DNA of 64,000 nt from Nemertoderma westbladi (GCA_032718475.1 JAUCBJ010005560.1:2861-66860), one strand, 5' to 3'. Counted from the first letter of the stretch, positions 560-60,779 are shown. The notes: generated by a model from the sequence alone, not told the origin. Translations and numbers: made by a program.

Positions 560-742
560 ATGAGAGATGTTGCGTTCCATACACTTAGCGCAGCCGAGCT
601 ATCTAGCGAACTATCCTTTGATGGATCACAGGATCAGAGCGAACTATTAAAGACGAAACTCAGCCAAAAGGATGACTTCATAAAGAAACTCCAGGAAGAA
701 TTAATTGAGTCGCAAAATCAGATTAAAATTACCTTGCAAAAG
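560..742 (+). CDS. Host exon 1 (183 nt): MRDVAFHTLS...KITLQK
   Basis: ttacag| acceptor, AAG|gtaaat donor. It begins with ATG but follows an acceptor, so it is probably an internal exon. Confidence 0.8.
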
Positions 743-1369
743 GTAAATTAGTTACATTAGACTATTCCACCGATATACTAGTTCTTAGTAATGATAATTG
801 ATTGCTATTTAATTTTAGAAATTAGACGAATTAAAAATTTTTGTGGTTTTTAATTAAATTATGCTAGAAGTTTGTTTGTATAAAAGATCAATAGGCATAT
901 TATGCTATCAGTATTCCAATTATTATATTCATATACTGTATATTATTATATTTATAATTTTCATTCGACGTGCAATATCGTACTCGTTAATTTATTAAAT
1001 ATTTCACACAAATTACATTAGTATTCCTTAGTAGTGCTCCTATTATTGATTGTAAAGTACTTTACAATAATTGTTACTTATTACCAAAACCCAGCACCAC
1101 AATGCAGACACGACCAATGAGTCTTACCTGTCACTGCTATTGTGAAAAACTGATATTGTTCAATGGCAGTCGGGTTGTGATAGGTAACGCGATGGGTAGC
1201 CATTACTTCTGAAAACTCTTCTAAATGCCCTCGGTCGTGATAAACCGATGAATCGGGGATTTACATTGGTGATAGCGGCCTGTGGAGGTGTTGCGTTGGA
1301 GGGTGGCCGGTATGTAATGTACTTTACACACAAGGTGGTTTATACTTTATTTGTTTATATCTACCCAAG

Positions 1370-1528
1370 GGCCACGAAAAGGAGGCTGAACTCAACCAAT
1401 ATCTAACGAGGTTGTCTACCGGACAATCTACAGACTCCTCGGGAATTACCAGTAAAGATATGACGATTCTCAACCTTAAAACAGAGTTGAGAAAATCCGA
1501 GGAGATCAGACAAACTGCGGAAAGGAAA
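1370..1528 (+). CDS. Host exon 2 (159 nt): GHEKEAELNQ...QTAERK
   Basis: cccaag| acceptor after a T-rich tract, AAA|gtgagt donor, in frame. Confidence 0.8.
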
Positions 1529-1842
1529 GTGAGTTTATTTTACAGACTATTCGTTGTGTTAAGGTTGTGTGTTTGTTTATTTGTTTGTTTATTTGTTGGT
1601 TTTCTTTGTTTCGTTTATTTATCATTGTATTGGCAATGGTACTCTCCTTCACTTCACTTAGGGATATAATACGATACTACGGAAAAAGTATAAAAACAAA
1701 GGTTTACCAAATTAATTAAAAAATATTAATAATATTTTTGTTTTAACAAAAAGTAATTTTTTGTATTATATCGAAAAACGTCAGACCTAGCTTTATTTGC
1801 TATATTATCTTTATTCGCTTTTTTTTACAATATTTTTTTCAG

Positions 1843-1989
1843 TCCCGTGAACGTTCTTTGGAAGTAGAACGTATCTATGGTGAACTCAGTCAATCGAATA
1901 CGACCTTAGCAACAGCCGACTCAGAACGTCAGCGGTTGCTGCTTAGCGTGGAACAATCGGAACAAAGAAACAGGGAACGAAGTTCCGAG
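1843..1989 (+). CDS. Host exon 3 (147 nt): SRERSLEVER...RERSSE
   Basis: tttttttcag| acceptor, GAG|gttagt donor, in frame. Confidence 0.85.
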
Positions 1990-2057
1990 GTTAGTATAAA
2001 ATAAATGGAATGGACAGGGAACGAAGTTCCGAGGTTAGTATAAAATAAATGGAACGG
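1970..2057 (+). repeat. 44-bp tandem duplication of exon 3 end plus donor
   Basis: acagggaacgaagttccgag|gttagtataaaataaatggaa occurs twice. Confidence 0.9.
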
Positions 2058-2362
2058 GACGGGAGGTTATATTAAACAAAAGTTCCATCTGGGTCCATCC
2101 TACAAAATATAATATAATTAAAATAAAATAATATAACATAATAATGACTGCATAATAAGGTGATTGCACTAAAAGGTAACTTAAATCTTCGAGTTTCATT
2201 ATAAATCGAGTAGAATAAGTAATATTTAATTTGAATATAGAATCGGATTAATTCCTTCCCTCCAGTACAGTTTAACCTACGTAGGGGTGGGTTCTTTGCA
2301 TAATATTTAATATACTCAGTATTTGTTACGCAATTGACTGATTTAAGTAAATATAATTATAC

Positions 2363-3241
2363 TTATTGGATAGCAACTGCTTCTTGTTTGTTCCCGTTAA
2401 CGGAACCATTAAACATCCCGTCCACTGAATCAGGTTCTCCGCTACTCTTCCCCCGTCCGTCCGACTGTCCGGAACCATTCTCCCGTCCGTCCGACTGTCC
2501 GAAACGCTTCTCCCGCCCGTCCGACTGTCCGGAACCCTTCTCCCGTCCGTCCGACTGCCCGGAACCCTTCTCCCGTCCGTCCGACTGTCCGGAACCATCC
2601 TCCGACTCATCCACCCACAGCCGACTGATGTGTTCCGAGGTGGCGACTCTCTCAACAGCGCCACACGATATCGCCGTTATCTCCTCGTGTAGGGCAGCTA
2701 CCGAGCGAGTCGCGTCCAACACGACCCACTCGGAGTCCCGGAGCTGCTCGTAAACCCGAGCGACCTCGCGTTGCAACTCCGACGTTTCGTATCGTTCCTT
2801 ACCGAAGTCGGCGCGACTCGCTGCCTCTACCGGGTCTATCCGCAGGTAGAAGAGAAGGTCGGGTCTAGGTAACCCCCGGTCTGGAGCCTTGCACCACTCA
2901 AGATCCATCGTTATATTACGTTTAGCCGCGGTGTAAACAACCCCGGAATACGCGTAACGATCGACCACCAATGTTATCCCCGCGGACAGTTTCCTCCGCA
3001 TTTCGGCGTCCAACTCCCAGCGATTAGCCGAAAACATTAAATGAATAGCGTGGTCGTCTATATCTGCATTTTGCTTGAGATAGTTACTTATGGTTTTCCC
3101 GATGGGAGTTTGACGAGCTGGGAAGTATAGTTTCTCCGTGGGATATCCGCGCTCTTTAAGTGCCTCCACCAGGATGTTGCTCTGGGTTGTCTTGCCGCTA
3201 CGGTCGCAGCCCTCAAATACGATGAGCGCGCCGCGTCCCAT
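2363..3241 (-). CDS. DTYMK: Thymidylate kinase (dTMP kinase), intronless CDS, with repetitive C-terminal extension; nested in host intron 3
   Basis: RGALIVFEGCDRSGKTTQ P-loop, HLMFSANRWE, VVDRYAYSGV, GLPRPDL and FGKERYE motifs of eukaryotic TMPK. Confidence 0.95.
   Translation of the reverse strand: MGRGALIVFEGCDRSGKTTQSNILVEALKERGYPTEKLYFPARQTPIGKTISNYLKQNADIDDHAIHLMFSANRWELDAEMRRKLSAGITLVVDRYAYSGVVYTAAKRNITMDLEWCKAPDRGLPRPDLLFYLRIDPVEAASRADFGKERYETSELQREVARVYEQLRDSEWVVLDATRSVAALHEEITAISCGAVERVATSEHISRLWVDESEDGSGQSDGREKGSGQSDGREKGSGQSDGREKRFGQSDGRENGSGQSDGRGKSSGEPDSVDGMFNGSVNGNKQEAVAIQ
2451..2600 (-). repeat. 30-bp coding minisatellite in DTYMK tail (GSGQSDGREK, about 5 copies)
   Basis: Repeated ccgtccgtccgactgtccggaa...ttctc units. 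Confidence 0.9.
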
Positions 3242-5759: not shown

Positions 5760-5927
5760 GTGGCTAACTTGGAGGTGTTATTAGACAAACTTAAAGGAGA
5801 AAACTCGAATTTGAAGGAACGGAATCGGCAACTTAAATATGAGAACCAACGAAGTGAACGCCAAGTACGAAGTTTAGAATCAGATCTAGAAGCTAATAAA
5901 GTTCAATGCAAACAAACAACCGATGAG
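5760..5927 (+). CDS. Host exon 4 (168 nt): VANLEVLLDK...KQTTDE
   Basis: ttttttatcttag| acceptor, GAG|gttagc donor. Its 3' end is the first unit of the 53-bp array. Confidence 0.85.
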
Positions 5928-8900
5928 GTTAGCGTCCAAAACAGTGAAATAAAGTTCAATGCAAACAAACAACCGATGAGGTTAGAGTCCAAAACAGTGA
6001 AATAAAGTTCAATGCAAACAAACAACCGATGAGGTTAGAGTCCAAAACAGTGAAATAAAGTACAATGTAAACAAACAACTGATGAGGTTAGAGTCCAAAA
6101 CAGTGAAATAAAGTTCAATGCAAACAAACAACTGATGAGGTTAGAGTCCAAAACAGTGAAATAAAGTTCAATGCAAACAAACAACTGATGAGGTTAGAGT
6201 CCAAAACAGTGAAATAAAGTTCAATGCAAACAAACAACTGATGAGGTTAGAGTCCAAAACAGTGAAATAAAGTTCAATGCAAACAAACAACCGATGAGGT
6301 TAGAGTCCAAAACAGTGAAATAAAGTTAAATGTAAACAAACAACCGATGAGGTTAGAGTCCAAAACAGTGAAATAAAGTTCAATGGAAACAAACAACCGA
6401 TGAGGTTAGAGTCCAAAACAGTGAAATAAAGTTCAATGCAAACAAACAACCGATGAGGTTAGAGTCCAAAACAGTGAAATAAAGTACAATGTAAACAAAC
6501 AACTGATGAGGTTAGAGTCCAAAACAGTGAAATAAAGTTCAATGCAAACAAACAACTGATGAGGTTAGAGTCCAAAACAGTGAAATAAAGTTCAATGCAA
6601 ACAAACAACTGATGAGGTTAGAGTCCAAAACAGTGAAATAAAGTTCAATGCAAACAAACAACTGATGAGGTTAGAGTCCAAAACAGTGAAATAAAGTTCA
6701 ATGCAAACAAACAACTGATGAGGTTAGAGTCCAAAACAGTGAAATAAAGTTCAATGCAAACAAACAACCGATGAGGTTAGAGTCCAAAACAGTGAAATAA
6801 AGTTAAATGTAAACAAACAACCGATGAGGTTAGAGTCCAAAACAGTGAAATAAAGTTCAATGGAAACAAACAACCGATGAGGTTAGAGTCCAAAACAGTG
6901 AAATAAAGTTCAATGCAAACAAACAACCGATGAGGTTAGAGTCCAAAACAGTGAAATAAAGTACAATGTAAACAAACAACTGATGAGGTTAGAGTCCAAA
7001 ACAGTGAAATAAAGTTCAATGCAAACAAACAACTGATGAGGTTAGAGTCCAAAACAGTGAAATAAAGTTCAATGCAAACAAACAACTGATGAGGTTAGAG
7101 TCCAAAACAGTGAAATAAAGTTCAATGCAAACAAACAACTGATGAGGTTAGAGTCCAAAACAGTGAAATAAAGTTCAATGCAAACAAACAACCGATGAGG
7201 TTAGAGTCCAAAACAGTGAAATAAAGTTAAATGTAAACAAACAACCGATGAGGTTAGAGTCCAAAACAGTGAAATAAAGTTCAATGGAAACAAACAACCG
7301 ATGAGGTTAGAGTCCAAAACAGTGAAATAAAGTTCAATGCAAACAAACAACCGATGAGGTTAGAGTCCAAAACAGTGAAATAAAGTTCAATGCAAACAAA
7401 CAACCGATGAGGTTAGAGTCCAAAACAGTGAAATAAAGTACAATGTAAACAAACAACTGATGAGGTTAGAGTCCAAAACAGTGAAATAAAGTTCAATGCA
7501 AACAAACAACTGATGAGGTTAGAGTCCAAAACAGTGAAATAAAGTTCAATGCAAACAAACAACTGATGAGGTTAGAGTCCAAAACAGTGAAATAAAGTTC
7601 AATGCAAACAAACAACTGATGAGGTTAGAGTCCAAAACAGTGAAATAAAGTTCAATGCAAACAAACAACCGATGAGGTTAGAGTCCAAAACAGTGAAATA
7701 AAGTTCAATGTAAACAAACAACCGATGAGGTTAGAGTCCAAAACAGTGAAATAAAGTTCAATGGAAACAAACAACCGATGAGGTTAGAGTCCAAAACAGT
7801 GAAATAAAGTTCAATGCAAACAAACAACCGATGAGGTTAGAGTCCAAAACAGTGAAATAAAGTACAATGTAAACAAACAACCGATGAGGTTAGAGTCCAA
7901 AACAGTGAAATAAAGTTCAATGTAAACAAACAACCGATGAGGTTAGAGTCCAAAACAGTGAAATAAAGTTCAATGCAAACAAACAACTGATGAGGTTAGA
8001 GTCCAAAACAGTGAAATAAAGTTCAATGCAAACAAACAACTGATGAGGTTAGAGTCCAAAACAGTGAAATAAAGTTCAATGCAAACAAACAACCGATGAG
8101 GTTAGAGTCCAAAACAGTGAAATAAAGTTCAATGTAAACAAACAACTGATGAGGTTAGAGTCCAAAACAGTGAAATAAAGTTCAATGGAAACAAACAACC
8201 GATGAGGTTAGAGTCCAAAACAGTGAAATAAAGTTCAATGGAAACAAACAACCGATGAGGTTAGAGTCCAAAACAGTGAAATAAAGTTCAATGCAAACAA
8301 ACAACCGATGAGGTTAGAGTCCAAAACAGTGAAATAAAGTACAATGTAAACAAACAACTGATGAGGTTAGAGTCCAAAACAGTGAAATAAAGTTCAATGC
8401 AAACAAACAACTGATGAGGTTAGAGTCCAAAACAGTGAAATAAAGTTCAATGCAAACAAACAACTGATGAGGTTAGAGTCCAAAACAGTGAAATAAAGTT
8501 CAATGCAAACAAACAACTGATGAGGTTAGAGTCCAAAACAGTGAAATAAAGTTCAATGCAAACAAACAACTGATGAGGTTAGAGTCCAAAACAGTGAAAT
8601 AAAGTTCAATGCAAACAAACAACCGATGAGGTTAGAGTCCAAAACAGTGAAATAAAGTTAAATGTAAACAAACAACCGATGAGGTTAGAGTCCAAAACAG
8701 TGAAATAAAGTTCAATGGAAACAAACAACCGATGAGGTTAGAGTCCAAAACAGTGAAATAAAGTTCAATGCAAACAAACAACCGATGAGGTTAGAGTCCA
8801 AAACAGTGAAATAAAGTACAATGTAAACAAACAACCGATGAGGTTAGAGTCCAAAACAGTGAAATAAAGTTAAATGTAAACAAACAACCGATGAGGTTAG

Positions 8901-11900
8901 AGTCCAAAACAGTGAAATAAAGTTCAATGGAAACAAACAACCGATGAGGTTAGAGTCCAAAACAGTGAAATAAAGTACAATGTAAACAAACAACCGATGA
9001 GGTTAGAGTCCAAAACAGTGAAATAAAGTTAAATGTAAACAAACAACTGATGAGGTTAGAGTCCAAAACAGTGAAATAAAGTTCAATGCAAACAAACAAC
9101 TGATGAGGTTAGAGTCCAAAACAGTGAAATAAAGTTCAATGCAAACAAACAACCGATGAGGTTAGAGTCCAAAACAGTGAAATAAAGTTCAATGCAAACA
9201 AACAACCGATGAGGTTAGAGTCCAAAACAGTGAAATAAAGTACAATGTAAACAAACAACTGATGAGGTTAGAGTCCAAAACAGTGAAATAAAGTTCAATG
9301 CAAACAAACAACTGATGAGGTTAGAGTCCAAAACAGTGAAATAAAGTTCAATGCAAACAAACAACTGATGAGGTTAGAGTCCAAAACAGTGAAATAAAGT
9401 TCAATGCAAACAAACAACTGATGAGGTTAGAGTCCAAAACAGTGAAATAAAGTTCAATGCAAACAAACAACCGATGAGGTTAGAGTCCAAAACAGTGAAA
9501 TAAAGTACAATGTAAACAAACAACTGATGAGGTTAGAGTCCAAAACAGTGAAATAAAGTTCAATGCAAACAAACAACTGATGAGGTTAGAGTCCAAAACA
9601 GTGAAATAAAGTTCAATGCAAACAAACAACTGATGAGGTTAGAGTCCAAAACAGTGAAATAAAGTTCAATGCAAACAAACAACTGATGAGGTTAGAGTCC
9701 AAAACAGTGAAATAAAGTTCAATGCAAACAAACAACCGATGAGGTTAGAGTCCAAAACAGTGAAATAAAGTTAAATGTAAACAAACAACCGATGAGGTTA
9801 GAGTCCAAAACAGTGAAATAAAGTTCAATGGAAACAAACAACCGATGAGGTTAGAGTCCAAAACAGTGAAATAAAGTTCAATGGAAACAAACAACCGATG
9901 AGGTTAGAGTCCAAAACAGTGAAATAAAGTTCAATGCAAACAAACAACCGATGAGGTTAGAGTCCAAAACAGTGAAATAAAGTACAATGTAAACAAACAA
10001 CTGATGAGGTTAGAGTCCAAAACAGTGAAATAAAGTTCAATGCAAACAAACAACTGATGAGGTTAGAGTCCAAAACAGTGAAATAAAGTTCAATGCAAAC
10101 AAACAACTGATGAGGTTAGAGTCCAAAACAGTGAAATAAAGTTCAATGCAAACAAACAACTGATGAGGTTAGAGTCCAAAACAGTGAAATAAAGTTCAAT
10201 GCAAACAAACAACTGATGAGGTTAGAGTCCAAAACAGTGAAATAAAGTTCAATGCAAACAAACAACCGATGAGGTTAGAGTCCAAAACAGTGAAATAAAG
10301 TTAAATGTAAACAAACAACCGATGAGGTTAGAGTCCAAAACAGTGAAATAAAGTTCAATGGAAACAAACAACCGATGAGGTTAGAGTCCAAAACAGTGAA
10401 ATAAAGTTCAATGCAAACAAACAACCGATGAGGTTAGAGTCCAAAACAGTGAAATAAAGTACAATGTAAACAAACAACTGATGAGGTTAGAGTCCAAAAC
10501 AGTGAAATAAAGTTCAATGCAAACAAACAACTGATGAGGTTAGAGTCCAAAACAGTGAAATAAAGTTCAATGCAAACAAACAACTGATGAGGTTAGAGTC
10601 CAAAACAGTGAAATAAAGTTCAATGCAAACAAACAACTGATGAGGTTAGAGTCCAAAACAGTGAAATAAAGTTCAATGCAAACAAACAACCGATGAGGTT
10701 AGAGTCCAAAACAGTGAAATAAAGTTAAATGTAAACAAACAACCGATGAGGTTAGAGTCCAAAACAGTGAAATAAAGTTCAATGGAAACAAACAACCGAT
10801 GAGGTTAGAGTCCAAAACAGTGAAATAAAGTTCAATGCAAACAAACAACCGATGAGGTTAGAGTCCAAAACAGTGAAATAAAGTTCAATGCAAACAAACA
10901 ACCGATGAGGTTAGAGTCCAAAACAGTGAAATAAAGTACAATGTAAACAAACAACTGATGAGGTTAGAGTCCAAAACAGTGAAATAAAGTTCAATGCAAA
11001 CAAACAACTGATGAGGTTAGAGTCCAAAACAGTGAAATAAAGTTCAATGCAAACAAACAACTGATGAGGTTAGAGTCCAAAACAGTGAAATAAAGTTCAA
11101 TGCAAACAAACAACTGATGAGGTTAGAGTCCAAAACAGTGAAATAAAGTTCAATGCAAACAAACAACCGATGAGGTTAGAGTCCAAAACAGTGAAATAAA
11201 GTTAAATGTAAACAAACAACCGATGAGGTTAGAGTCCAAAACAGTGAAATAAAGTTCAATGGAAACAAACAACCGATGAGGTTAGAGTCCAAAACAGTGA
11301 AATAAAGTTCAATGCAAACAAACAACCGATGAGGTTAGAGTCCAAAACAGTGAAATAAAGTACAATGTAAACAAACAACCGATGAGGTTAGAGTCCAAAA
11401 CAGTGAAATAAAGTTAAATGTAAACAAACAACCGATGAGGTTAGAGTCCAAAACAGTGAAATAAAGTTCAATGGAAACAAACAACCGATGAGGTTAGAGT
11501 CCAAAACAGTGAAATAAAGTACAATGTAAACAAACAACCGATGAGGTTAGAGTCCAAAACAGTGAAATAAAGTTAAATGTAAACAAACAACTGATGAGGT
11601 TAGAGTCCAAAACAGTGAAATAAAGTTCAATGCAAACAAACAACTGATGAGGTTAGAGTCCAAAACAGTGAAATAAAGTTCAATGCAAACAAACAACTGA
11701 TGAGGTTAGAGTCCAAAACAGTGAAATAAAGTTCAATGCAAACAAACAACCGATGAGGTTAGAGTCCAAAACAGTGAAATAAAGTTAAATGTAAACAAAC
11801 AACCGATGAGGTTAGAGTCCAAAACAGTGAAATAAAGTTCAATGGAAACAAACAACCGATGAGGTTAGAGTCCAAAACAGTGAAATAAAGTTCAATGCAA

Positions 11901-14680
11901 ACAAACAACCGATGAGGTTAGAGTCCAAAACAGTGAAATAAAGTACAATGTAAACAAACAACTGATGAGGTTAGAGTCCAAAACAGTGAAATAAAGTTCA
12001 ATGCAAACAAACAACTGATGAGGTTAGAGTCCAAAACAGTGAAATAAAGTTCAATGCAAACAAACAACTGATGAGGTTAGAGTCCAAAACAGTGAAATAA
12101 AGTTCAATGCAAACAAACAACTGATGAGGTTAGAGTCCAAAACAGTGAAATAAAGTTCAATGCAAACAAACAACTGATGAGGTTAGAGTCCAAAACAGTG
12201 AAATAAAGTTCAATGCAAACAAACAACCGATGAGGTTAGAGTCCAAAACAGTGAAATAAAGTTAAATGTAAACAAACAACCGATGAGGTTAGAGTCCAAA
12301 ACAGTGAAATAAAGTTCAATGGAAACAAACAACCGATGAGGTTAGAGTCCAAAACAGTGAAATAAAGTTCAATGCAAACAAACAACCGATGAGGTTAGAG
12401 TCCAAAACAGTGAAATAAAGTACAATGTAAACAAACAACTGATGAGGTTAGAGTCCAAAACAGTGAAATAAAGTTCAATGCAAACAAACAACTGATGAGG
12501 TTAGAGTCCAAAACAGTGAAATAAAGTTCAATGCAAACAAACAACTGATGAGGTTAGAGTCCAAAACAGTGAAATAAAGTTCAATGCAAACAAACAACTG
12601 ATGAGGTTAGAGTCCAAAACAGTGAAATAAAGTTCAATGCAAACAAACAACCGATGAGGTTAGAGTCCAAAACAGTGAAATAAAGTTAAATGTAAACAAA
12701 CAACCGATGAGGTTAGAGTCCAAAACAGTGAAATAAAGTTCAATGGAAACAAACAACCGATGAGGTTAGAGTCCAAAACAGTGAAATAAAGTTCAATGCA
12801 AACAAACAACCGATGAGGTTAGAGTCCAAAACAGTGAAATAAAGTTCAATGCAAACAAACAACCGATGAGGTTAGAGTCCAAAACAGTGAAATAAAGTAC
12901 AATGTAAACAAACAACTGATGAGGTTAGAGTCCAAAACAGTGAAATAAAGTTCAATGCAAACAAACAACTGATGAGGTTAGAGTCCAAAACAGTGAAATA
13001 AAGTTCAATGCAAACAAACAACTGATGAGGTTAGAGTCCAAAACAGTGAAATAAAGTTCAATGCAAACAAACAACTGATGAGGTTAGAGTCCAAAACAGT
13101 GAAATAAAGTTCAATGCAAACAAACAACCGATGAGGTTAGAGTCCAAAACAGTGAAATAAAGTTAAATGTAAACAAACAACCGATGAGGTTAGAGTCCAA
13201 AACAGTGAAATAAAGTTCAATGGAAACAAACAACCGATGAGGTTAGAGTCCAAAACAGTGAAATAAAGTTCAATGCAAACAAACAACCGATGAGGTTAGA
13301 GTCCAAAACAGTGAAATAAAGTACAATGTAAACAAACAACCGATGAGGTTAGAGTCCAAAACAGTGAAATAAAGTTAAATGTAAACAAACAACCGATGAG
13401 GTTAGAGTCCAAAACAGTGAAATAAAGTTCAATGGAAACAAACAACCGATGAGGTTAGAGTCCAAAACAGTGAAATAAAGTACAATGTAAACAAACAACC
13501 GATGAGGTTAGAGTCCAAAACAGTGAAATAAAGTTAAATGTAAACAAACAACTGATGAGGTTAGAGTCCAAAACAGTGAAATAAAGTTCAATGCAAACAA
13601 ACAACTGATGAGGTTAGAGTCCAAAACAGTGAAATAAAGTTCAATGCAAACAAACAACCGATGAGGTTAGAGTCCAAAACAGTGAAATAAAGTACAATGT
13701 AAACAAACAACCGATGAGGTTAGAGTCCAAAACAGTGAAATAAAGTTAAATGTAAACAAACAACTGATGAGGTTAGAGTCCAAAACAGTGAAATAAAGTT
13801 CAATGCAAACAAACAACCGATGAGGTTAGAGTCCAAAACAGTGAAATAAAGTACAATGTAAACAAACAACCGATGAGGTTAGAGTCCAAAACAGTGAAAT
13901 AAAGTTAAATGTAAACAAACAACCGATGAGGTTAGAGTCCAAAACAGTGAAATAAAGTTCAATAGAAACAAACAACCGATGAGGTTAGAGTCCAAAACAG
14001 TGAAATAAAGTTCAATGCAAACAAACAACCGATGAGGTTAGTGTCCAAAACAGTGAAATAAAGTACAATGTAAACAAACAACCGATGAGGTTAGAGTCCA
14101 AAACAGTGAAATAAAGTTCAATGTAAACAAACAACCGATGAGGTTAGAGTCCAAAACAGTGAAATAAAGTACAATGTAAACAAACAACCGATGAGGTTAG
14201 AGTCCAAAACAGTGAAATAAAGTTCAATGTAAACAAACAACCGATGAGGTTAGAGTCCAAAACAGTGAAATAAAGTACAATGTAAACAAACAACCGATGA
14301 GGTTAGAGTCCAAAACAGTGAAATAAAGTACAATGTAAACAAACAACCGATAAGGTTAGAGTCCAAAACAGTGAAATAAAGTTCAATGTAAACAAACAAC
14401 CGATGAGGTTAGAGTCCAAAACAGTGAAATAAAGTACAATGTAAACAAACAACCGATGAGGTTAGAGTCCAAAACAGTGAAATAAAGTACAATGTAAACA
14501 AACAACCGATGAGGTTAGAGTCCAAAACAGTGAAATAAAGTTCAATGTAAACAAACAACCGATGAGGTTAGAGTCCAAAACAGTGAAATAAAGTACAATG
14601 TAAACCAACAACCGATGAGGTTAGAGTCCAAAACAGTGAAATAAAGTACAATGTAAACAAACAACCGATGAGGTTAGAGT
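5895..14680 (+). repeat. 53-bp tandem satellite, about 166 copies, with higher-order structure
   Basis: Unit aataaagttcaatgcaaacaaacaaccgatgaggttagagtccaaaacagtga; period measured from gatgag at 5922 and 5975. Confidence 0.98.
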
Positions 14681-41798: not shown

Positions 41799-41810
41799 TG
41801 TCGTTTCGGA

Positions 41811-47399: not shown

Positions 47400-48893
47400 T
47401 TAATAATACAAACCGCCACCAGAATATTAAATTTAAATTTAAAGGAGCGTAGTGCAAAGTAAAGGTTCCGAGTTTTATTTAGAGGCTAGTTCGGTCAGAG
47501 TCGGTGCAGATGCACAGTGCAAAGCGTGGTAGCGATCACAACAGTTGCCATGGCAATAGAGGCAGATACAGTCTGTTGAAAGTGAGTGGAAAGGCCGGTT
47601 TGTTTGGCAAATTTTGTGGTGAAAACCGTGAGATGTAAATCTTGTTAATACGTGACGATTGCGCTGTTTAGATAGTTTCCAGGTAGAAGAAGCAAAAGCA
47701 GGGCCATTTGAGTAATTTTCTTGGATAAAGTTGAGTTCACGGTTGTGGCGGTAATGATTGTATTGCGTAATAACTTCATTGTTAAATATCAGAGGTGTTT
47801 TCGTAATTATGTCTTCGATAAAAGATTGTTCATCAACGAGATGATAAGCTAGAGTCGATGAAGCCGTGATATGAAGGCCGAGCAACCGTTTAATGTAAGT
47901 TGATTTGATGCGGTCCAGATCTTTCAGGTTTGCTAGGGTTAGGAAGCGGGCGAAGACAGGAAGGGCATAGAGAGCCATAGGGGCAATTTTCATCCTGAAA
48001 AGTTTTAATCCAGTGTCAACAGATAAAAGCCTGAGGTTGTTAAGAGAGCCCGTAATACTATACGATTTTTTCTTTTTTGAGGTAATATGTTTCGTGAAAC
48101 TTAGCGAGGACTGTAGTGTAACACCCAGGTAGTCGTATTCATTACATATTGTTATGTCGTTGCCGCCATATATAAATTTGTCTGCAGCGGCCAAACGTCC
48201 TGCCTTTCTAAATTTTACAATTTTAGTTTTCACTAAGTTGACGTCCATTCCATTTTTGAGACACCATGATTGAAGTACGTCCAAGCCATTTTGAATAGTC
48301 TGTCTGTCCGGGGCGTATAGTACGAGGTCGTCGGCGTAAAACAGGAACTTTAGGAAAGATACCGTCTGTCGGAAAGCCCACGCCAAGTCGGATATAAATA
48401 CAATAAAACATAGCGGGGAAAAACAGTCTCCCTGTAAAACTCCACGGAACTGCGCAATAATATCTGAGAGATTTAGACCGTCGAATATTCTAATATTGTT
48501 TTGGAGTAGATTTTTAATTAAATCGAATAATTTTCCCTTTATTCCAAATTTGTACAACTTTGATAAAAGAATTGCACGGTTCACTTTATCGAAGGCTTTC
48601 TGAAAATCTACAAATGCTGCATACATTTTTCGATCTGATTTATTTGCCGATTGTAAGGCAGAGTAAATGTCGTTTATCAGTATACGTAGGGCATCGGCCG
48701 TAGACTTATTAGGCATAAAACCATATTGTTCCGACGGAATTTTGTGTGCTATGTACCATCGAACACGAGTGTTTATTATAGATGTGAGAGTTTTAATAAA
48801 TACAGATAACAATGCAATTCCCCTGTAGTTATCTGGTTTTGTAATTAGTCCTTTGCCTTTGTATAGGAGAAGGATTATGCATTCCTTCCAGCA
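47400..48893 (-). mobile_element. 5'-truncated non-LTR retrotransposon (LINE), RT plus C-terminal Cys/His region; ORF 47475-48812 still open
   Basis: KGKG..PDNYRGIAL, QYGF, FVDFQKAFD, GVLQGDCFSP, FYADD, YLGV, CLYC...HALHC; no endonuclease domain present. Confidence 0.9.
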
Positions 48894-50706
48894 TAAACTT
48901 AATAATCATAACAATCGTAACATCGTTAACACTTAATAATCATATTTATTTTTCATATATTACTTCACCGTGGATAATTTATTGGATCTGTACTGGTTAA
49001 TCACTGTGACCATATTAGTAGTGTTTTTTTGTCAAAGGCTGGTTGAATAGTTCTCATTAATTTGATGTCTTAAAGACAAGGTACGGTACCACCAATTATT
49101 TAAATACTTATATCTGCCCTGCGTTTACGCAAATCAGTATTATTATTGTTATAAAACTGGTGACATAACTTCGGGCGCTTAACAATAAGCAGTAAACGTA
49201 ATATCTAACTCAATAATAACTAATTCCATTAGCTATCTCATTCTTAACTCAATCGTAGTAAAATTATAATAATTAGCGCGAATGAAAATAATGCCATAAT
49301 TAATTAAGCGGAACGTTTCTATTTATTACATTAAACCATCATCAGCCAAATACTACAGTAAGACACATAAAGTTTAAATTACATTCTAAATTATTAATAT
49401 TACTGCAAAATATGTGAAAACATTACAATACGAGAAGATATAAGAGCCTAACTACTTGCATACGTAATACTACATTCTTAACTCTTTTTGGCCCGTGAAT
49501 TCATCTGTGGTTACTTTGGCTCGCACCCAAGCTTCTTTTTTTATTATTCATGTTTTTAAGCGGTGTAAAGTACTTGGCTGTGTAAAGTGCTGGCAAAGCA
49601 TGATGCAGCCTCACATCTCACACTGCACTCCTTAGTCCTAACCCACAACCCACCCGCCCCCACAACACACACATTTATCTCAGAGATTATTTAATTCGAG
49701 CAGTCTGGACTTTTTAGTTTTTATTAAATTAGTTATTTTGTTTCGCTGACACCCAATCATGCTAAATGTTCTAATCATTATAAACCCAGAGGATACATTG
49801 CGCAGCTGTTGGTCGCGTAGTGTTAAAATCCTCAAAATGGCCAATTTGTGTTTCACAACATTTTGGATTATTAGTTACAATAAGTTGATGTTAAGCCGCG
49901 AGCAGTACCACCAAAACCGATAGACTGGTCTGGACCCGAGTACAATGACCTTAGCAACCAACCAGCGATACCAATCAAACAAACACCATGTCTTTAATAA
50001 TTGCGACCAGGGCAATCATAAGATGTTATCTGCCAGTCTGCCGGCTAAGCTGAAAGTGCTGCTTCCTTTAATCTTTTAAGCGCATGTGTGGCCTGTCCGG
50101 CAGGTTCTTGTTAAAATTCCTGCGGTCATTACAGACCACCGTGTGGGTTACTGTCTGTTGAATGGCTTTGGTTATTATACTTCTACCTAGTCTACTTGCC
50201 TCTTACATGTATGGAGCCGCCATAATGTCGCGCCTGTATCAGCTAATTCTCTTTATATGTCACCTCCAACTATTTTTTTTCACAGTTTCTCAGTTTTAAG
50301 ATCTAATCATTTCTGATTTGAATAATAAATTACTAATTGGCTAATTAATTATTATATTATTATTATTAGTTTATTACCTTAACATATGACATAACATATG
50401 TATGATAGTTATGTAATTTAGCACCCATAAAAGCATAAGCAGGAAACAGCGGTTGTCCTTTAGTGTAAGTTTAGTTAGACTATATTTTTCCTAGGTATCG
50501 GTAGCATAATTATATCTGTCTATTTTTAACCTTTCCGGACGTCTCAAAATGCATTATTTAGACTTCACGGTTTTTATTATTGGTAATGTGGGTGAATTAG
50601 TGCGATTTCATATTATAATTTTCTACCTTTCACTGGATAAAGACGCAATCCAAATTCATCCCTCTCCTCTCCAGGGGGAAATCGAAGCAAATAACAGCGC
50701 TGAGTG

Positions 50707-52360: not shown

Positions 52361-55300
52361 ATGGCCTATTTTAAAGCCATAGAAGATGGAAATATTATGA
52401 AAGTAAAAGCTGCTATCAGCAACATTCCCAATGTATTCGACCCCAACCTCAAGAACAAGAACGGGGAGGCGGGTCTCCACATGGCGGCTGGGTACGGACA
52501 TATCGAAGTAATCGAGTACCTCCACTCCCTCGGTGCGAATCTCAACGTGCGAGACAACCACGGGGACAACGCAGTGTACTGGGCGGCCCGGCACGGCCAT
52601 GTCGAGGTAATCCGATACCTGATAGACAACGGCGCGGAGCTAAACCATCAGGATAAGGAGGGCGAGTCTGCGCTGCACGTAGCCGGTCGCTACGGAAACG
52701 CTGAGGTTATCCGTTTCTGCGCGGCGCATTCCGGGACGCAACTCGATCTGCAGGACGTCGACGGAGATTCCCCGCTGCACTGCGCGGCATGGCACGGCTA
52801 CGCGACCGTGGCCACGGCCTTGTGCGACTCGGGGGCCCAACTCAACGCGAAGAATAGAGACGGAGAATCCGCGTTAGCGATCGCGGCGGCCAGGGGATTC
52901 CTCGAGATCGTCGGGATTCTCGAGCAGTCCGGATGTAAGTTAGACCTGCAGGACCGGACCGGTTCCACCGCGGTCCATCTAGCGGCGCGTCGACGCCACG
53001 CCGAGATCGTCGAGTATCTGTCAGCGGCCGGTGCGGATCTATCCGTGGCGGACCGTAACGGCGACACGGCGTTGCACACGGCGACCCGACTGGGGGACCT
53101 AGACGCCACCGAGTCGCTACTCCGAAACGGGGCCGATCCGAATCGCGCCAACCGTCACGGCGACCTCCCATTGCACCTCGGCGCGCGCGCCGGACACGCG
53201 GACCTCGCGCGCACCTTGGCGGTGGCCGGATCCGAGTTGGGACGGAAGAACTCGGCTGGATTGTCCGCGGAAGTCGTCGCCATGTCGGAGGGACACGACG
53301 AGATCGGGGAGCTCATCCAGAGCCTCCGACTGGAGGGGAACCTCGGGTTCTACGCCTCGCAACTCCTCCCGAGTATCTCCTCGATCCCGCGGGTTAAACT
53401 CGTCGTCCTCGGGGACTCCGGGAGCGGCAAGTCGACGCTGATCGAGTCGCTCCGCTCCGGGGTGCTGCGTTCCCTTCTCCGAGTCCCTTGGGCCGCTCTG
53501 AGTCGCTCCTTCGACGCGACGGCCTATAAACCCGGGTTGGACTCCGTGGCGACGCGCGGTATCGATATCCGCTCCGTCTCGCTCCCAGGAGCCGGCGACT
53601 TCTCCGTCTGGGAGTTCCCCGGCTCCCCCTCCTACTCCTCAGTCTTCCATCACTTCCTCCTCGATCCCGTCGCTCTCTACCTCGTTCTTTTCCCGTTGAC
53701 TCTGAAACCCGGGCAGCAACTGGCCGCCGTTCTCTATTGGCTGGGTTTATTGGTCGCTAAGCAACGCCGTGGACGCGTCATGTTGGTCGCAACGCACGGC
53801 GACGCCGCCGGTTGCCGTAGAGACGAGGAAACCGGGGAACTGGTCAGTGATACTGCGGAGGCGGTGCTGCGGATGGCGAAGCGACGCCTCCTAGCTGCGG
53901 GTGTGGAGCAGCGCCCTCTAGCGGTGGGTGAGGGAGAGCGCCCTCTAGCGGCGGGTGTGGAGCAACGCCCCCTAGCGGTGGGTGAGGGACAGCGCCCTCT
54001 AGTGGGCGCAGACGAACAGCGCCCGGTGGCCTCGCAACCGTTCCGGGAGGGACTGGAGTTGGAGGACGAGGTGGCGGTGGTCGACGGCCGGGGTTCCCAA
54101 AGCCGCGAGTTACGTCGACTCCGTTCCCGTCTGCGCACCCTCCGTTGCGACCTCCTCAACCGCCAGCCGCCGCCCACACTCCTCGTTTCCGTTATCTCAA
54201 CGTCGTTGCCGCAGTGGCGGCGCGTTCTCGCCGCCTTCCCGGTTATAACGTGGCGGCAGTTTGTGGCGGCGGTCCGCGCGAATATCAACCCGGTGGCGTG
54301 CGAGGGCCACCTCCGCGCGGCTGCCGCGGCATTGCGCGCCGCCGGGGAGATCATCACCTTTCCCGGGGTCGAACTGCTGGACGACTTGGTGGTTCTGGAG
54401 CCGCGATGGCTGTGCACCTCGGTTATCGGACGGCTGCTGGCCCCGGACACCGAGTGTCTGGACGATGGGGTTCTCAGCGTCGACGAGTTGGCTCGGCTGT
54501 TCGAGGAGGGCGCCCCCGCTAGAGGCGTCGACGTCTGGGAGCTCGCCCAACTGCTCGTCTCGTTGGACCTGTGCAACCCGACGGAAGGGGGCCGTCTCTA
54601 CGAGTTCCCGTGTCTCAATCGGCTCCCCGCGGCCTACGGCGGCACTCTGTGGGAGTCCCAGCCCGGGCTGGTCTACGGGGGACTCAGACTCACCGTGTTC
54701 GGGGGCCCGTCGACCGCCCTCCCTCGTGGGGTCTTTCCTAAGGTCCAGGTCTACCTACAGCAGTTCGTGGACTCCCGTAGCAGTTCCGACGACGCCTCCA
54801 TCTACATCTGGGCGAACGGCAGTAAACTAACAATCGGACAACTCGAATCCTTGCTCTACATCGTCACTTACAACCACAACGCCCATATCGATATCGTAGT
54901 CCGCGGTCTACCCAACGAGTCTCATTCCTGTCTTATATTCCTGTTCGATATGGTATCCTTGGTGGACCAACTCATACTGGACAGCTACCCCGGATTGACT
55001 CTCATCCGATCGATCCTCTCAGCCAATCAGCTCGCCGAACACGCCCCCGTGGTCTACTCCTACCCCCCGGCGATGGTCCATCGCACCCTCCTTAGGGACG
55101 ACTCTTTGTTCCTCAACGAGATCAACGACTACGTCGAACAGCTCCACGAACTCGTCGGGTTCGGCTCGCGAGCCACCGCGGCTCATCTGATGCCCGGGAT
55201 GCGACTCCCGGCCAATCAGATGCCGTCGCGGTGTCTCACCGAGGTCTGTCGTCTACTGGACGCGCGGGACGCGCTGGGGAGGGACTGGTGTCTGTTAGCC

Positions 55301-55549
55301 GTCACTCTGCGGTTGACCAACGTGGTCCCCCGACTCATAGAGAGCGAGTTGGGCGAGTCACCCAGCGAGTTGGTGCTACGGGACTGGGCCCAGGACGACA
55401 GTCACACCATTGGGGAGCTCGTGTGTCGACTGCTCGAACTGGGGAGGGAGGACGTGGCCTTGGTCTTAATGTCGTTGACTCCATTGTTTAAGTATCACCG
55501 TGGAAACTGGTCGCCCAATAGGATTCGATTGAATGGCGGTCACAGCTGA
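52361..55549 (+). CDS. DAPK1: DAPK1-like Roco protein (ankyrin repeats-ROC-COR-death domain) without kinase domain, intronless CDS; nested in host intron 11 (same strand as host)
   Basis: NAVYWAARHGH and PLHCAAWHGY ankyrins; GDSGSGKSTL P-loop; GDFSVWEF; LVATH; PRWLCT; GVFPKVQV; GRDWCLLA...LLELGREDVA death domain. All are collinear with DAPK1. Confidence 0.92.
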   Translation: MAYFKAIEDGNIMKVKAAISNIPNVFDPNLKNKNGEAGLHMAAGYGHIEVIEYLHSLGANLNVRDNHGDNAVYWAARHGHVEVIRYLIDNGAELNHQDKEGESALHVAGRYGNAEVIRFCAAHSGTQLDLQDVDGDSPLHCAAWHGYATVATALCDSGAQLNAKNRDGESALAIAAARGFLEIVGILEQSGCKLDLQDRTGSTAVHLAARRRHAEIVEYLSAAGADLSVADRNGDTALHTATRLGDLDATESLLRNGADPNRANRHGDLPLHLGARAGHADLARTLAVAGSELGRKNSAGLSAEVVAMSEGHDEIGELIQSLRLEGNLGFYASQLLPSISSIPRVKLVVLGDSGSGKSTLIESLRSGVLRSLLRVPWAALSRSFDATAYKPGLDSVATRGIDIRSVSLPGAGDFSVWEFPGSPSYSSVFHHFLLDPVALYLVLFPLTLKPGQQLAAVLYWLGLLVAKQRRGRVMLVATHGDAAGCRRDEETGELVSDTAEAVLRMAKRRLLAAGVEQRPLAVGEGERPLAAGVEQRPLAVGEGQRPLVGADEQRPVASQPFREGLELEDEVAVVDGRGSQSRELRRLRSRLRTLRCDLLNRQPPPTLLVSVISTSLPQWRRVLAAFPVITWRQFVAAVRANINPVACEGHLRAAAAALRAAGEIITFPGVELLDDLVVLEPRWLCTSVIGRLLAPDTECLDDGVLSVDELARLFEEGAPARGVDVWELAQLLVSLDLCNPTEGGRLYEFPCLNRLPAAYGGTLWESQPGLVYGGLRLTVFGGPSTALPRGVFPKVQVYLQQFVDSRSSSDDASIYIWANGSKLTIGQLESLLYIVTYNHNAHIDIVVRGLPNESHSCLIFLFDMVSLVDQLILDSYPGLTLIRSILSANQLAEHAPVVYSYPPAMVHRTLLRDDSLFLNEINDYVEQLHELVGFGSRATAAHLMPGMRLPANQMPSRCLTEVCRLLDARDALGRDWCLLAVTLRLTNVVPRLIESELGESPSELVLRDWAQDDSHTIGELVCRLLELGREDVALVLMSLTPLFKYHRGNWSPNRIRLNGGHS
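53891..54030 (+). repeat. 27-bp coding repeat (about 5 x 9 aa, AAGVEQRPL/AVGEGERPL) inserted in the ROC domain
   Basis: gcgccctctagcggtgggtgagggaga-type units. Confidence 0.85.
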
Positions 55550-55559
55550 TAGGCGCATC

Positions 55560-56999: not shown

Positions 57000-58150
57000 A
57001 AACGACGGTACGATTTGTATATCTCGGATTGAACCAAACAGTTGTTGTCACGGACTGCACAAATAACAGCATTTGTCGATGCAGAAACTACTAAATAGTT
57101 TAGTAGTTTACTTAATAGTTAGTTAGTTTACTAAATAGTATGTAAGGGAAGTCTATGTAAATGCACCACAGAACGGATACCTAAACTGACGTGCATCTCG
57201 CTAGCACTACAGTTTAGCTACTGAAACCAAACAGCCGTGTAACTGAATTTGTTAAGGCAACTTTAAGACTGTTAAATATCCATTGACTGCAATAGACATC
57301 GGCCCAAAGTGCATTACAATAAATATTACAACAGTAGCTATTGAAAAGTCGAAGTTTAACTAGTTTACTGCAGTTACTGAATTTACGAATAATAATATTA
57401 GCACGGGAATACATTAATCTAGTCTGGGCTTTAATATCTACGTCATCAGAAAAGTCTGGGGTGACGTAATGCCCTAAGTATTTAAACTTGTTGACGACTT
57501 CTAATATATTACCATCCAATGTGAAGTTCGTATGGGTTCTAGAGATATAGTATATATTGAAGAATCTCGGAGACAGGATACGGTTTCGATAGTGCTCCGT
57601 CCCATCTGACATAAATTACCTGATTTTTGTACCAGAATAAAATAATTATAAGTAAAAATAATGGAATGCCCCGCTCATAGAGGCGGGTAAAAAGAATAGA
57701 TAAATCAACAGTATCAAATGATTTAGTAGCGTCCAAGAACGCTGCATGGACATTGGAACCATTAAGCAGGTAGTCATTAATAACCTCTTTAAGAGAGTAA
57801 GTGCGCATTTCGATACCAAGTTTACGTTTAAAGCCAAATTGATAATCGGTTGTAAATAAATACAATTCAATTCTAAATTGAATAATTATTTCATACAGTT
57901 TACTAATAATGCTCGATAAGGAGACCGGCCTGTAATTGTTATTATCAGACTTATCTCCTGTCTTATCTTTTTTTAATTTGAACAACAATTGTGGAAATCA
58001 TCCATTTTGGTAAAAAAAAACCATGTACATTAAAAGAACTAAAAAGCAATGATAAAAATATAAAAAATATAACCAGAATTTTAGGACCATTTACAATATG
58101 TTCGGCATAGATACCATCCTCGCCAGAAGACTTAATGCTCCTTCAAATAC
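57000..58150 (-). pseudogene. Degraded LINE reverse transcriptase remnant
   Basis: NYRPVSL, QFGFK, FLDATKSFD and KFKYLGH in different frames; the QG/YADD core is missing. Confidence 0.8.
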
Positions 58151-58299
58151 CGTATTGCAGTTTCCGTTTCGTCAATATTAAAAATCATGTCATTATTAAA
58201 AACTAAGTTACTAAAACGTCTATTAAAATCATAAAACTCATGCTCATTTATGAAATTAGTCATAAATGTCATTTTAAAAAAGTCAGCTATAAATAACTA

Positions 58300-58636
58300 T
58301 ATACGTCATTGTTCATATTATAGCACATTATAGCGTTACGGCACGAGTGATTTTGTTTCGCGAGCGACAGCGAGGGAAATAATAGAACGAGGGCCGTAAA
58401 AGCTTTAATGTGCAAATTATGAACAATGGCGAATCTAATTTTATTTATTTGTGTGGAATTATTTGTAGTTATGCACTTAAACTTTCTAGAACAACCTAAT
58501 AATGACGCGGTGACATACTGGATATAGGGGACCTACTGGAAATACAGTAAAATGTGTGGCGTAGGGACATTCTGAGAAATAATGTCGCACTGGCGATTTG
58601 GTAGTGCGAAATTAATTCCACAAAAATAAATAAAAT
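58300..58636. mobile_element. Small palindromic MITE-like element
   Basis: cattgttcata..gcacatta..ttacggc is mirrored by gccgtaa..taatgtgc..tatgaacaatg; a second inverted-repeat pair lies at about 58438 and 58636. Confidence 0.5.
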
Positions 58637-59895
58637 AATTTACTGTACCGAGGTAATAAATGCTTTTTAATGGACCTCAATGTCAATATGTCCCCCTCCA
58701 AATGACTGAACTTTGAATTACCTGATAGACTGTTCGTGAGCTATAAATATAAATTATCCCCTCTATTTTTCCTATTAATAGCTGACCTCGACCTCCTTCT
58801 GGTTATTCTGTGTGTTTACGGAAATGTCGTCGGTTGACCTGCTTGATTTGCAAGTGTTTTATTTTATGTAGTGGCTTTACTTATCCCAAGGGCTCGTCTG
58901 ACCTGTCTCCCACAAGTAGCACCCCACCCCACCCCCCCCCCCCCCCCCCCCCCCCTCTCCCTCTCACAGATTTCGGTTAGCTACTTGTTTTAGTTAAGAA
59001 ATGTACATAAATAATTGCAACAACTAATAGTTGCTCGTGAAGGGAGCTGAAACTAGATCCTGAAACAGTTACTGCCTGAAAAATAACATGGTTATTGTTT
59101 AATTGCCTCTCTGGAATCAGTTTAAACATAATTTTGCTTTCCCCCCAGTTTTTCAGATGGGAATTATAATTTACAATGCCATCTGATTAGGCCTCTGTAA
59201 TGAATTGAATTTCAAAGGGAAGTAAAATGGTAATATATTAATTCACATCTGCCCATCATATTTTGTTGATGGAAACATGTCTGGTGATCTGAGACGTATC
59301 ACAATCACATTCGATTTAATTTGAATATTTATTTTCTTTATATGGTATAGCTTTATGTCTTTTATATTGATTATGGGCTGAGTATTTTTTTTAACAATCA
59401 AGTTAAATTAACTAACTCTAAACAAATTTGATCCTTTTCTTCGGGGTGACATAAAAGTGCATATAGTAGATTTAGTTTGAATAAAAACGCCGAGTAAAAA
59501 TATGTAGCCTTCTATAGCTTATGCTTTAACCTAAACCTTTAACATTGATGATATTTCTCGACACACAGATCTTATTATAGCTAATTTCATAACTACCTGG
59601 CATTCCTGATTCACAGTTTTAAAACCTCAAACATAAGTCATAATCTATGATCCGGATTTAAACGAACTATCGTCTTTCACTCTACTATGCGCCAACACTG
59701 GCCTGGTATACCTGATTGACTGATTCCCATTCTGCCCTTTATCCTGTCACTTTTCTCCTACACACTTTTGCCCTGCCCCCCTTTCTCCTACCTCCACATG
59801 CCCCCTTCTCCTACATTCCTCGTGCCCTTCTCACATCACTTACCACCCCCCCCCCCCCCGCCCTTGTCACTAATCTCAATTCAATTCGTCTTTAG

Positions 59896-60067
59896 GTTAT
59901 CAGTTTGGAAAGAGAAGTTGATGAAGTTCGGAATACCGTACGAACTACCGAGTTGCAACTTAATTCTAAAGAAGACACCTTGGGAAGTTTCAAACGACAA
60001 TTAGAAGACACACAGTACAATCTAACGTCGGTTGAAATGGAGTTGAAAAGATCTGAAGAAACTGTCG
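59896..60067 (+). CDS. Host exon 12 (172 nt, ends phase 1): VISLEREVDE...SEETV
   Basis: gtctttag| acceptor, G|gttagt donor. Confidence 0.85.
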
Positions 60068-60561
60068 GTTAGTTACTAGAATATTAAATTACATAAACAT
60101 AAATTACCGAATTATTCTGACAATATATCCTCAGTACTGTAATGCACTTTTAGTTTATATTATAACAAGGGTATATAAGAGTACATCCGTACCTTCTTAG
60201 ATATTAATAATAATACTATGTTGGGCATTATTGAAAAACCATTATACGTTACGCACGGAATTTGACAGTTGCAGGCTCAAAGAATTTTGATATAAACAAG
60301 TAAATTTGTTTCACATTGCATACCTTTAGTGCTAAATTAGGACATCGACATCAGTAAGGTGATCAACAAAAAACTGGATCACTATCTGATTAGATTCAAG
60401 ATTTTTACCAAGGAAAATTTCGTTATGCACGGACTGAGGAAAATATATAATTTCTTAAACAATCTTTTGTTGGGTCATATCGGTCGGGTTTATCTAGGTA
60501 TAGAGAGATAATTTTATACCTGTGTAATTTGCAACACAAAATTTAAATTTTAAAATTGCAG

Positions 60562-60779
60562 GTAAACTGACCAGTGAAGTGGCAGCGCGAAAAGTCCGTG
60601 AGGAAACTTTACAGGAGTCAATAACCTCAAAGGAGTCCACAATAAAGGACATGAAGACGGAATGTGATGACATCAGAAATGATTTGAACGACACTTTACA
60701 CAAGTTGTCTCAAAGAGACGAAACTCTAAAGAAAGTTCATAATGAAATGAACAAATTTAAACAACATTTTAAAGAAAAG
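60562..60779 (+). CDS. Host exon 13 (218 nt): GKLTSEVAAR...QHFKEK
   Basis: aattgcag| acceptor whose phase completes exon 12, AAG|gtaaga donor. Confidence 0.85.

Follow-up and report, generated by a model that had tools for sequence, protein, structure and literature searches.

How do conserved core genes come to lie, free of introns, inside the introns of another gene? The question is raised by a 64,000-nucleotide (nt) stretch of the Nemertoderma westbladi assembly (GCA_032718475.1 JAUCBJ010005560.1:2861-66860; 40% GC, 0 N), which is called the window here and was analysed at its full length. Eight uninterrupted open reading frames (ORFs) lie within six introns of one predicted plus-strand gene, and this arrangement is real at the DNA level. 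We refer to the enclosing gene, which is predicted to encode a long coiled-coil protein, as the host and to the enclosed genes as guests. In the cases studied to date, nested genes are young and dispensable, and massive intron loss accompanies a small, streamlined genome; in the repeat-rich DNA examined here these roles appear to be swapped.

The explanation that we tentatively favour, although it falls just short of probable, is that the seven conserved guests are working, separately promoted copies that moved as reverse-transcribed mRNA into once-short introns and likely replaced intron-bearing parents. The evidence comes from the window sequence, protein homologues, one metagenome locus (L001) and the literature.

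Genes nested in the host

All eight nested ORFs sit wholly between consecutive predicted host exons, in introns 3, 4, 5, 6, 8 and 12; the seven other host introns are free of guests. Six guests are antisense to the host, and the Cys-loop channel gene and the DAPK1-like gene are in sense. A preliminary description of this DNA had reported eight uninterrupted ORFs in six introns of a single predicted host, and their positions are confirmed here. The uninterrupted state applies to coding sequences, introns in untranslated regions (UTRs) being invisible in DNA. The guests, each with an uninterrupted coding sequence, are:

2363..3241, minus strand, intron 3: DTYMK (thymidylate kinase), 292 amino acids (aa), PF02223 (E=5e-47)
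15608..16273, minus strand, intron 4: basic helix-loop-helix (bHLH) gene, 221 aa, PF00010 (E=7e-18)
18939..19724, minus strand, intron 5: MAK16, 261 aa, PF01778 and PF04874
24159..24710, minus strand, intron 5: SAP30/SAP30L, 183 aa, PF13866 and PF13867
25039..25467, minus strand, intron 5: TAF10, 142 aa, PF03540 (E=3e-38)
28171..29328, plus strand, intron 6: glycine/GABA-A-type Cys-loop channel subunit, 385 aa, PF02931 and PF02932
44164..45240, minus strand, intron 8: orphan ORF, 358 aa, rich in S, K and P
52361..55549, plus strand, intron 12: DAPK1-like ankyrin-ROC-COR-death protein, 1062 aa, no kinase domain

Pfam matches above the curated cut-off were obtained for seven of the eight, and the conserved guests align unbroken with solved or annotated homologues over their domains. 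Another 108 ORFs of at least 55 aa were found in the window; 13 were excluded as overlapping host exons or as scanned with Pfam beforehand, and none of the remaining 95 gave a Pfam family, so no decayed gene copies were seen beside the intact guests. Rfam and ARAGORN returned no matches in the window.

The preliminary gene names hold for the SAP30 family, for bHLH and for a DAPK1-like protein, and are too precise in two respects. Scored as SAP30 or SAP30L, the zinc finger gives 52.1 versus 51.3 bits, a near-tie that does not distinguish the two. Pfam identifies the bHLH protein as HLH only; a subfamily motif makes it a putative Fer3/FERD3L-like protein. The DAPK1-like protein lacks the kinase domain.

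DTYMK aligns with the human enzyme over residues 3-209, and its C-terminal extension derives from an in-frame 30-bp tandem repeat. MAK16 is 51-75% identical to its homologues among the matches listed and retains 115 of 129 conserved columns. A MAK16 tree of 121 rows places the window copy in no supported group, adjoining a long branch, and a MAK16 search of viral contigs revealed no relative. Ten exact look-ups in the protein collection, made to place the lineage, likewise gave no match. The channel subunit has the ligand-binding domain and four-helix membrane region of its family; it aligns over its full length with glycine receptors (glycine receptor alpha, E=2e-48), and both Cys-loop cysteines are present. 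Its loop between membrane helices 3 and 4 is very short, like that of the shortened constructs in its alignment. The orphan ORF spans 359 codons, compared with a longest ORF of 197 in 2000 base shuffles of the same stretch. It matches no Pfam family, and its top atlas score of 0.80 is a lead only. The protein looks disordered and contains 13 S/T-P sites, three of them with the full CDK consensus.

The DAPK1-like protein has the domain order of the DAPK1 family, namely ankyrin repeats, ROC, COR and death. Ank and Death are above the cut-off, and Roc, COR-A and COR-B are below it, at E values of 1e-6 to 9e-4. Pfam found no Pkinase match in the protein, and when the first 345 residues of as many as seven DAPK homologues served as tblastn queries, no part of the window resembled a kinase. 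The homologue search was dominated by ankyrin-repeat proteins, and the C-terminal part was matched in 14 of 150 hits, to which it is 27-32% identical. The kinase is also absent from eight of 13 DAPK-like homologues picked from the 150 hits, and one crinoid record begins at the same methionine as the window protein; some of these records may be split annotations. The gene has 63% GC (GC at third codon positions, GC3, 0.76) amid surroundings of 35% GC and carries an in-frame 27-bp tandem insertion at 53891-54002, in the ROC-COR region.

The host gene

The host comprises 14 plus-strand exons, spread over 560 to 60779, whose joined frame runs through 736 codons without a stop. All 13 introns are GT-AG, and 12 of the 13 junctions are in phase 0, the last being in phase 1 on both sides. 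The predicted protein contains no proline and is enriched in E, K, Q, R and L. The preliminary description had counted 13 exons and placed the DAPK-like gene in intron 11; the window contains 14 coding exons of the host, which puts that gene in intron 12. The host exons, all on the plus strand, are:

560..742: exon 1 in the window, 61 codons, acceptor AG immediately 5' of ATG, probably not the first exon
1370..1528: exon 2, 53 codons, phase 0-0
1843..1989: exon 3, 49 codons, phase 0-0, 3' end and donor duplicated (44 bp x1.9)
5760..5927: exon 4, 56 codons, phase 0-0
17320..17478: exon 5, 53 codons, phase 0-0
27285..27431: exon 6, 49 codons, phase 0-0, ATG at start
30691..30849: exon 7, 53 codons, phase 0-0
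42892..43038: exon 8, 49 codons, phase 0-0
45868..46020: exon 9, 51 codons
46255..46380: exon 10, 42 codons
46687..46857: exon 11, 57 codons
47179..47277: exon 12, 33 codons
59896..60067: exon 13, phase 0-1
60562..60779: exon 14, phase 1-0, GT donor at end

The host is incomplete, with its frame open at both ends, because an AG precedes the ATG of exon 1 and a GT donor closes exon 14. Searching 1-559 and 60780-64000 for phase-0 acceptors gave no convincing additional host exon. Both strands were also scanned for AG...GT open frames of coiled-coil composition, scored with a composition table of our own, and 14 of the 18 top plus-strand rows overlapped the 14 host exons; the other four were a tandem array (two), the DAPK frame and the strand opposite DTYMK.

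No homologue of the host emerged when longer proteins were searched for words of exon 5, and alignment of 12 separate exons to 7989 candidates gave nothing at E<=1. Pfam gave sub-threshold generic coiled-coil matches only for the 14 exons, and the atlas comparison returned unrelated coiled-coil clusters sharing 112-136 of 256 features. The predicted sequence allows no closer name for the host product than a long coiled-coil protein, and the idea that it is tissue-restricted is a guess. Pairwise scores did not support a repeat origin of the 53/49-codon exon pairs. An in-frame fusion of exon 12 with the DAPK frame was also rejected: the sole AG before the DAPK ATG would have to be used in phase 1, and the end of exon 12 is in phase 0.

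Since phase-0 exons join in any order, we tested whether the heptad register of the coiled coil carries over the junctions. Mean continuity across the 13 junctions was 0.494, compared with 0.323 when the downstream exon was randomly shifted (0 of 5000 trials reached 0.494) and with 0.385 under permuted exon order (p=0.0004). At the six gene-bearing introns alone, continuity exceeded that of random partners at p=0.007, 0.016 and 0.013 for three window sizes. This continuity lends support to the preliminary proposal of one intron-rich coiled-coil host, whose exons are predicted to be spliced to one mRNA across the guests.

The alternative is that there is no single host, the exons belonging to two or more coiled-coil genes or to an assembly misjoined at a tandem array; some guests would then be ordinary intergenic genes, still intron-free. 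Several observations speak for it and against a single host. With 12 of 13 junctions in phase 0, frame compatibility alone is weak evidence, and exon 6 opens with ATG, possibly the start of a second gene. Single junctions were weakly supported in the heptad test: at intron 6 the true partner took ranks 12, 5 and 4 out of 13, and at intron 8 ranks 5, 8 and 7 out of 13. None of the searches made produced a homologue to back the gene model. An array frame of 39-bp units at 22184-22407 ranked third in the exon scan. Large tandem arrays, of 8.8 and 11.9 kb, occupy introns 4 and 7:

5895..14680, plus strand: 53-bp x166 tandem array made of the exon 4 3' end and donor, intron 4
30950..42822, strand not assigned: 45-bp x243 and 32-bp x31 tandem arrays filling intron 7, with no nested gene

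A misjoin at intron 4 is unlikely because its array derives from the end of exon 4 itself; the array is specific to this locus and leads out into unique sequence. The intron 7 arrays are without comparable assurance. Each exon nevertheless ends at a GT donor beyond which translation halts within 1-46 residues, the window contains no N, and heptad continuity over the gene-bearing introns exceeds that of random exon pairing. We therefore consider a split or misjoined host very improbable.

Read-through of exon 4 beyond the first donor of the 53-bp array meets a stop after 25 residues. The end and donor of exon 3 are doubled at 1970-2054, a second tandem duplication anchored on a host exon end. 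The 39-bp tandem array at 21991-22405 contains an open leucine-rich frame between AG and GT, in a phase incompatible with host exon 5.

Missing introns

The guest coding sequences total 8736 nt with no intron, against 13 introns in 2208 nt of the host. At host density, 51 introns would be expected in the guests, and none of the eight is partly stripped. The genes for DTYMK, MAK16, TAF10 and Cys-loop channels normally have several exons in other animals.

A direct comparison was obtained for SAP30. From 288 pattern matches in metagenome contigs one locus, L001, provided an orthologue, and SAP30 alone among nine window proteins matched it. In L001 an acceptor precedes VDLYQ, and a GT-AG intron of 2033 nt follows 33 codons downstream. 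The window SAP30 is continuous through both sites, and the alignment is gapless at the second, where both sides were compared. For DAPK, two Owenia DAPK1 records differ by a clean stretch of 33 residues in the ankyrin region, as in exon skipping, and this region is uninterrupted in the window. Intron absence relative to orthologues is shown, by sequence comparison, for SAP30 against one orthologue and is indirect for DAPK. Oyster MAK16 isoforms were set aside as evidence on introns, as they differ inside a glutamate run.

Intron-free genes make up a fraction of 0.03-0.25 in most of the animal species surveyed (PMC11649378), and intron loss is generally attributed to reverse transcription (PMC3488318). 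The clean absence of two SAP30 introns found in L001, together with remnants of LINE-type (long interspersed element) reverse transcriptase in intron 12, strengthens the preliminary suggestion of RNA-mediated intron loss.

Insertion sites and traces of retroposition

The seven guest-free introns hold just 193-627 nt outside tandem arrays, so the guests apparently entered short introns. In gene-bearing introns the guest comes with a further 1.75-2.4 kb of flank per gene, a figure that reaches 7.1 kb in intron 12. Insertion into short introns is apparently the simplest reading; with six of 13 small targets occupied, it would imply a high rate of gene movement. Intron 12 also contains two features that the preliminary description omitted:

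47475..48905, minus strand: open reverse-transcriptase frame, 476 codons, PF00078 (E=9e-36), no N-terminal endonuclease part
57214..57997, minus strand: disrupted reverse-transcriptase remnant split over two frames, one piece matching PF00078 (E=1e-8)

Both are on the minus strand and they flank the DAPK1-like gene. Judged by its motifs, the first is probably a 5'-truncated non-LTR (non-long-terminal-repeat, LINE-type) copy. Retroposition machinery has therefore acted at the locus. Runs of eight A occur near two of the eight guests only (DTYMK and the orphan). Guest coding sequence contains two tandem repeats, and the period of each, 30 and 27 bp, is a multiple of three.

Self-comparison of the window showed no paired inverted repeats flanking any guest. 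Diverged inverted arms (70-85% identical) at 61090-61467 and 63404-63769 enclose a 17-bp x56 array and resemble an old DNA transposon, and shorter inverted pairs bracket arrays at 19966-22960.

Candidate promoters, base composition and spliced leaders

Among the non-homopolymer 8-mers of the window's non-coding DNA, the palindrome TAGGCCTA is the most strongly over-represented. Of 14 AGGCCT sites, six fall in the 300 nt before a guest ATG, where 1.2 would be expected (p=7e-4), and one lies downstream. Counted per gene, AGGCCT is upstream of four of the eight guests (p=0.005) and TAGGC[CT] of five (DTYMK, MAK16, SAP30, TAF10 and DAPK; p=0.015), the bHLH gene, the channel gene and the orphan not being among them. 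The sites clustered 5' of nested genes are:

16777, 19863, 24801, 25513, 25845 and 51797-52238: AGGCCT/TAGGCCTA sites

A further AGGCCT/TAGGCCTA site occurs at 225, about 335 nt 5' of host exon 1. These positions hint that TAGGC[CT]/AGGCCT is a candidate promoter element, which may resemble the mammalian ZFX site. Past the stop codon, AATAAA or ATTAAA follows within 330 nt in six of the eight guests, and at 556 nt for SAP30 and 667 nt for DAPK. A query for RNA runs covering 52300-55600 listed none, a result that carries no weight in either direction.

At fourfold sites the GC content of the seven conserved guests ranges from 0.52 to 0.76. The host has 0.40, and the orphan, at 0.42, is in this respect akin to the host and unlike the other guests. 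Observed/expected CpG is 0.96-1.33 over all coding sequences, 0.98-1.33 in the core genes and 0.93 in non-coding DNA; such absence of depletion would fit little gene-body methylation.

The preliminary description had raised a link to the spliced-leader trans-splicing of chaetognaths, and this finds no support here. Acceptor-like sites 5' of the eight ATGs fall between the 13th and 89th percentile of background under a model built from 14 host acceptors, so that acceptors are not enriched, and no trans-splice leader or acceptor signal was found at the guests. The TAF10 stop and SAP30 ATG are 328 nt apart on the same strand, and the gap contains AATAAA and its own AGGCCT site; it exceeds the <250-bp criterion for chaetognath operons (PMC12460157), although UTRs might shorten it. 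According to the same account, the genome of the chaetognath Paraspadella combines trans-splicing and operons with no intron deficit in duplicated families, and a retrotransposition burst is ruled out. A chaetognath ribosomal-protein gene also retains introns (PMC2566580).

Origin of the intron-free guests

Under relocation through mRNA, the host exons would be spliced into one mRNA over the guests. A LINE-type reverse transcriptase would have copied spliced mRNAs and inserted them in host introns of about 200-600 nt. The inserted copies would then have gained promoters, marked by TAGGC[CT]/AGGCCT before five of them, and the intron-bearing parents would have been lost. A narrowly expressed host with mostly antisense guests (6/8) would keep transcriptional interference low.

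A number of observations pull the other way. No tail-placed A-run of at least 8 was found within 1500 nt 3' of the eight guests, and none of the eight has a convincing 12-nt flanking direct repeat as a target-site duplication, the sole 12-nt match being A-rich, at TAF10. Old retrogenes lose the remnants of their poly(A) tails. The missing scars argue against young copies and provide no positive proof of retroposition. The flank of about 2 kb per guest is equally compatible with DNA-level moves of whole genes. Four motifs were tried and the broader pattern was picked after inspection; a looser pattern, at five of eight guests, gives p=0.069. MAK16 departs from 14 of 129 conserved columns, a larger number than in any but two of 120 homologues, which may reflect distance or relaxed constraint. 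The missing kinase domain of the DAPK1-like protein is what a 5'-truncated retrocopy would show. The bHLH gene says little on intron loss because it is probably single-exon in other animals.

Some of these points suit a history of two separate events, in which introns were lost in place across the lineage by cDNA recombination and the compact genes then moved as DNA, transposon-assisted or by rearrangement, with their promoters, as working sole copies. The flank per guest and the motif shared upstream of five look as if promoters had moved along, poly(A) and target-site scars were not found, and TAF10 and SAP30, 328 nt apart on one strand, resemble a pre-formed pair. The inverted-repeat arms around arrays suggest DNA transposons in the window, and in the mite Aculops lycopersici, with 84% of genes intronless, partly stripped genes point to loss in place (PMC7738191). 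Yet the host has kept its 13 introns in 2208 nt beside guests with none where 51 are expected, and no guest is partly stripped. Self-comparison places no guest between paired inverted repeats, and nesting is reported to arise often via RNA-mediated duplicates (PMC5174743). We regard this two-step history as rather unlikely, though worth keeping in view; under it and under relocation through mRNA alike, the guests would be working sole copies.

If intron-bearing parents survive elsewhere, the guests would instead be young processed copies or redundant duplicates, and the host an insertion hotspot. The open reverse-transcriptase frame in intron 12 suggests recent activity and the DAPK copy begins past the kinase domain. 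Intactness alone cannot decide the matter, since the frame and codon composition of the parent persist in a young copy. Young copies should, however, retain tails and target-site repeats, which were not found, and seven intact conserved frames stand against no Pfam family in 95 other ORFs. The kinase is missing from eight of 13 DAPK-like homologues, with the crinoid record starting at the same point (some perhaps split annotations), and repeat periods of 30 and 27 bp inside coding sequence are a weak sign of selection on the frame. Surviving parents are improbable on this evidence.

Relocation through mRNA could extend beyond the window. It is possible, if somewhat doubtful, that most broadly needed genes of this animal were replaced by intron-free retrocopies housed in the introns of those intron-rich, narrowly expressed genes that remain, and that these hosts serve as the intergenic space of the genome. 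If this holds genome-wide, relocation by reverse transcription would be the rule in the lineage, and ancestral linkage would be kept by intron-rich hosts only. It would also allow a clean test of intron loss in place, by cDNA recombination, against retroposition with parent loss, the two predicting different synteny for stripped genes and hosts. Such a genome would be informative on how transcription of long hosts proceeds through active core genes in an animal, and gene predictors that disallow nesting would break on it.

Comparison with known systems

Nesting, retrogenes and wholesale intron loss are each known. A matching architecture, with conserved core guests nested at such density in a divergent host, was not found in literature searches that left most subscription journals uncovered. 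The published short-read assembly of N. westbladi recovers 76.8% of metazoan BUSCO genes, has an N50 of 4 kb, averages 1.5 exons per gene and is repeat-rich (PMC10565955). These statistics may hint at an intron-poor state in many of its core genes, a claim that the authors do not make; the word 'nested' is absent from the paper, and a word search of the supplements returned no per-gene exon table. Gene structure in Xenoturbella bocki is described as ordinary (PMC11521371). In Ixodes, single-exon genes amount to 21-31% and are discussed chiefly for expanded families (PMC11752866).

Nested genes in Drosophila are described as young, fast-evolving, narrowly expressed and testis-biased, with conserved, broadly expressed hosts (Lee and Chang 2013, PMC3814207; Assis 2016, PMC5174743), and nesting there often arises from RNA-mediated duplicates (PMC5174743). 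As in the window, fly guests are wholly intronic and mostly antisense (71% in the fly, 6/8 here), same-strand guests tend to be single-exon, and several guests per host occur. Unlike in the fly, conserved core genes are among the window guests, and no homologue of the host was detected. In the fly, only 37% of antisense guests are single-exon, whereas all eight window coding sequences are uninterrupted; at fly rates this has a chance of 0.0014, a contrast that is overstated because the fly counts include UTR exons.

Nesting is abundant in the ctenophore Hormiphora californensis, with 2357 guests in 1654 hosts and 484 doubly nested; one example is a host with four guests, and guests often lie beside transposable elements (PMC8527503). 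That amounts to about 1.4 guests per host, against eight in the window, and the guests are not described there as intron-free core genes, some bearing introns. Dinoflagellates have widespread functional retrogenes, tagged with spliced leaders and tied to core cell activity (PMC12014239); these are not animals, and unlike their retrogenes with relict leaders the window guests show no leader or acceptor signal.

Aculops resembles the window in that its conserved genes are largely intron-free and reverse transcription is the favoured cause (PMC7738191). Its 32.5-Mb genome is streamlined and repeat-poor, whereas the window has tandem arrays, reverse-transcriptase remnants and an intron-rich host in which the stripped genes are nested. 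A parallel to the favoured reading is offered by the orphan retrogenes, intron-free, conserved and broadly expressed genes proposed as replacements of intron-bearing parents, for which 25 candidates are known in the human genome (Ciomborowska et al., PMC3548309). Those 25 come from a whole genome, as against up to seven candidates in the single host of this window.

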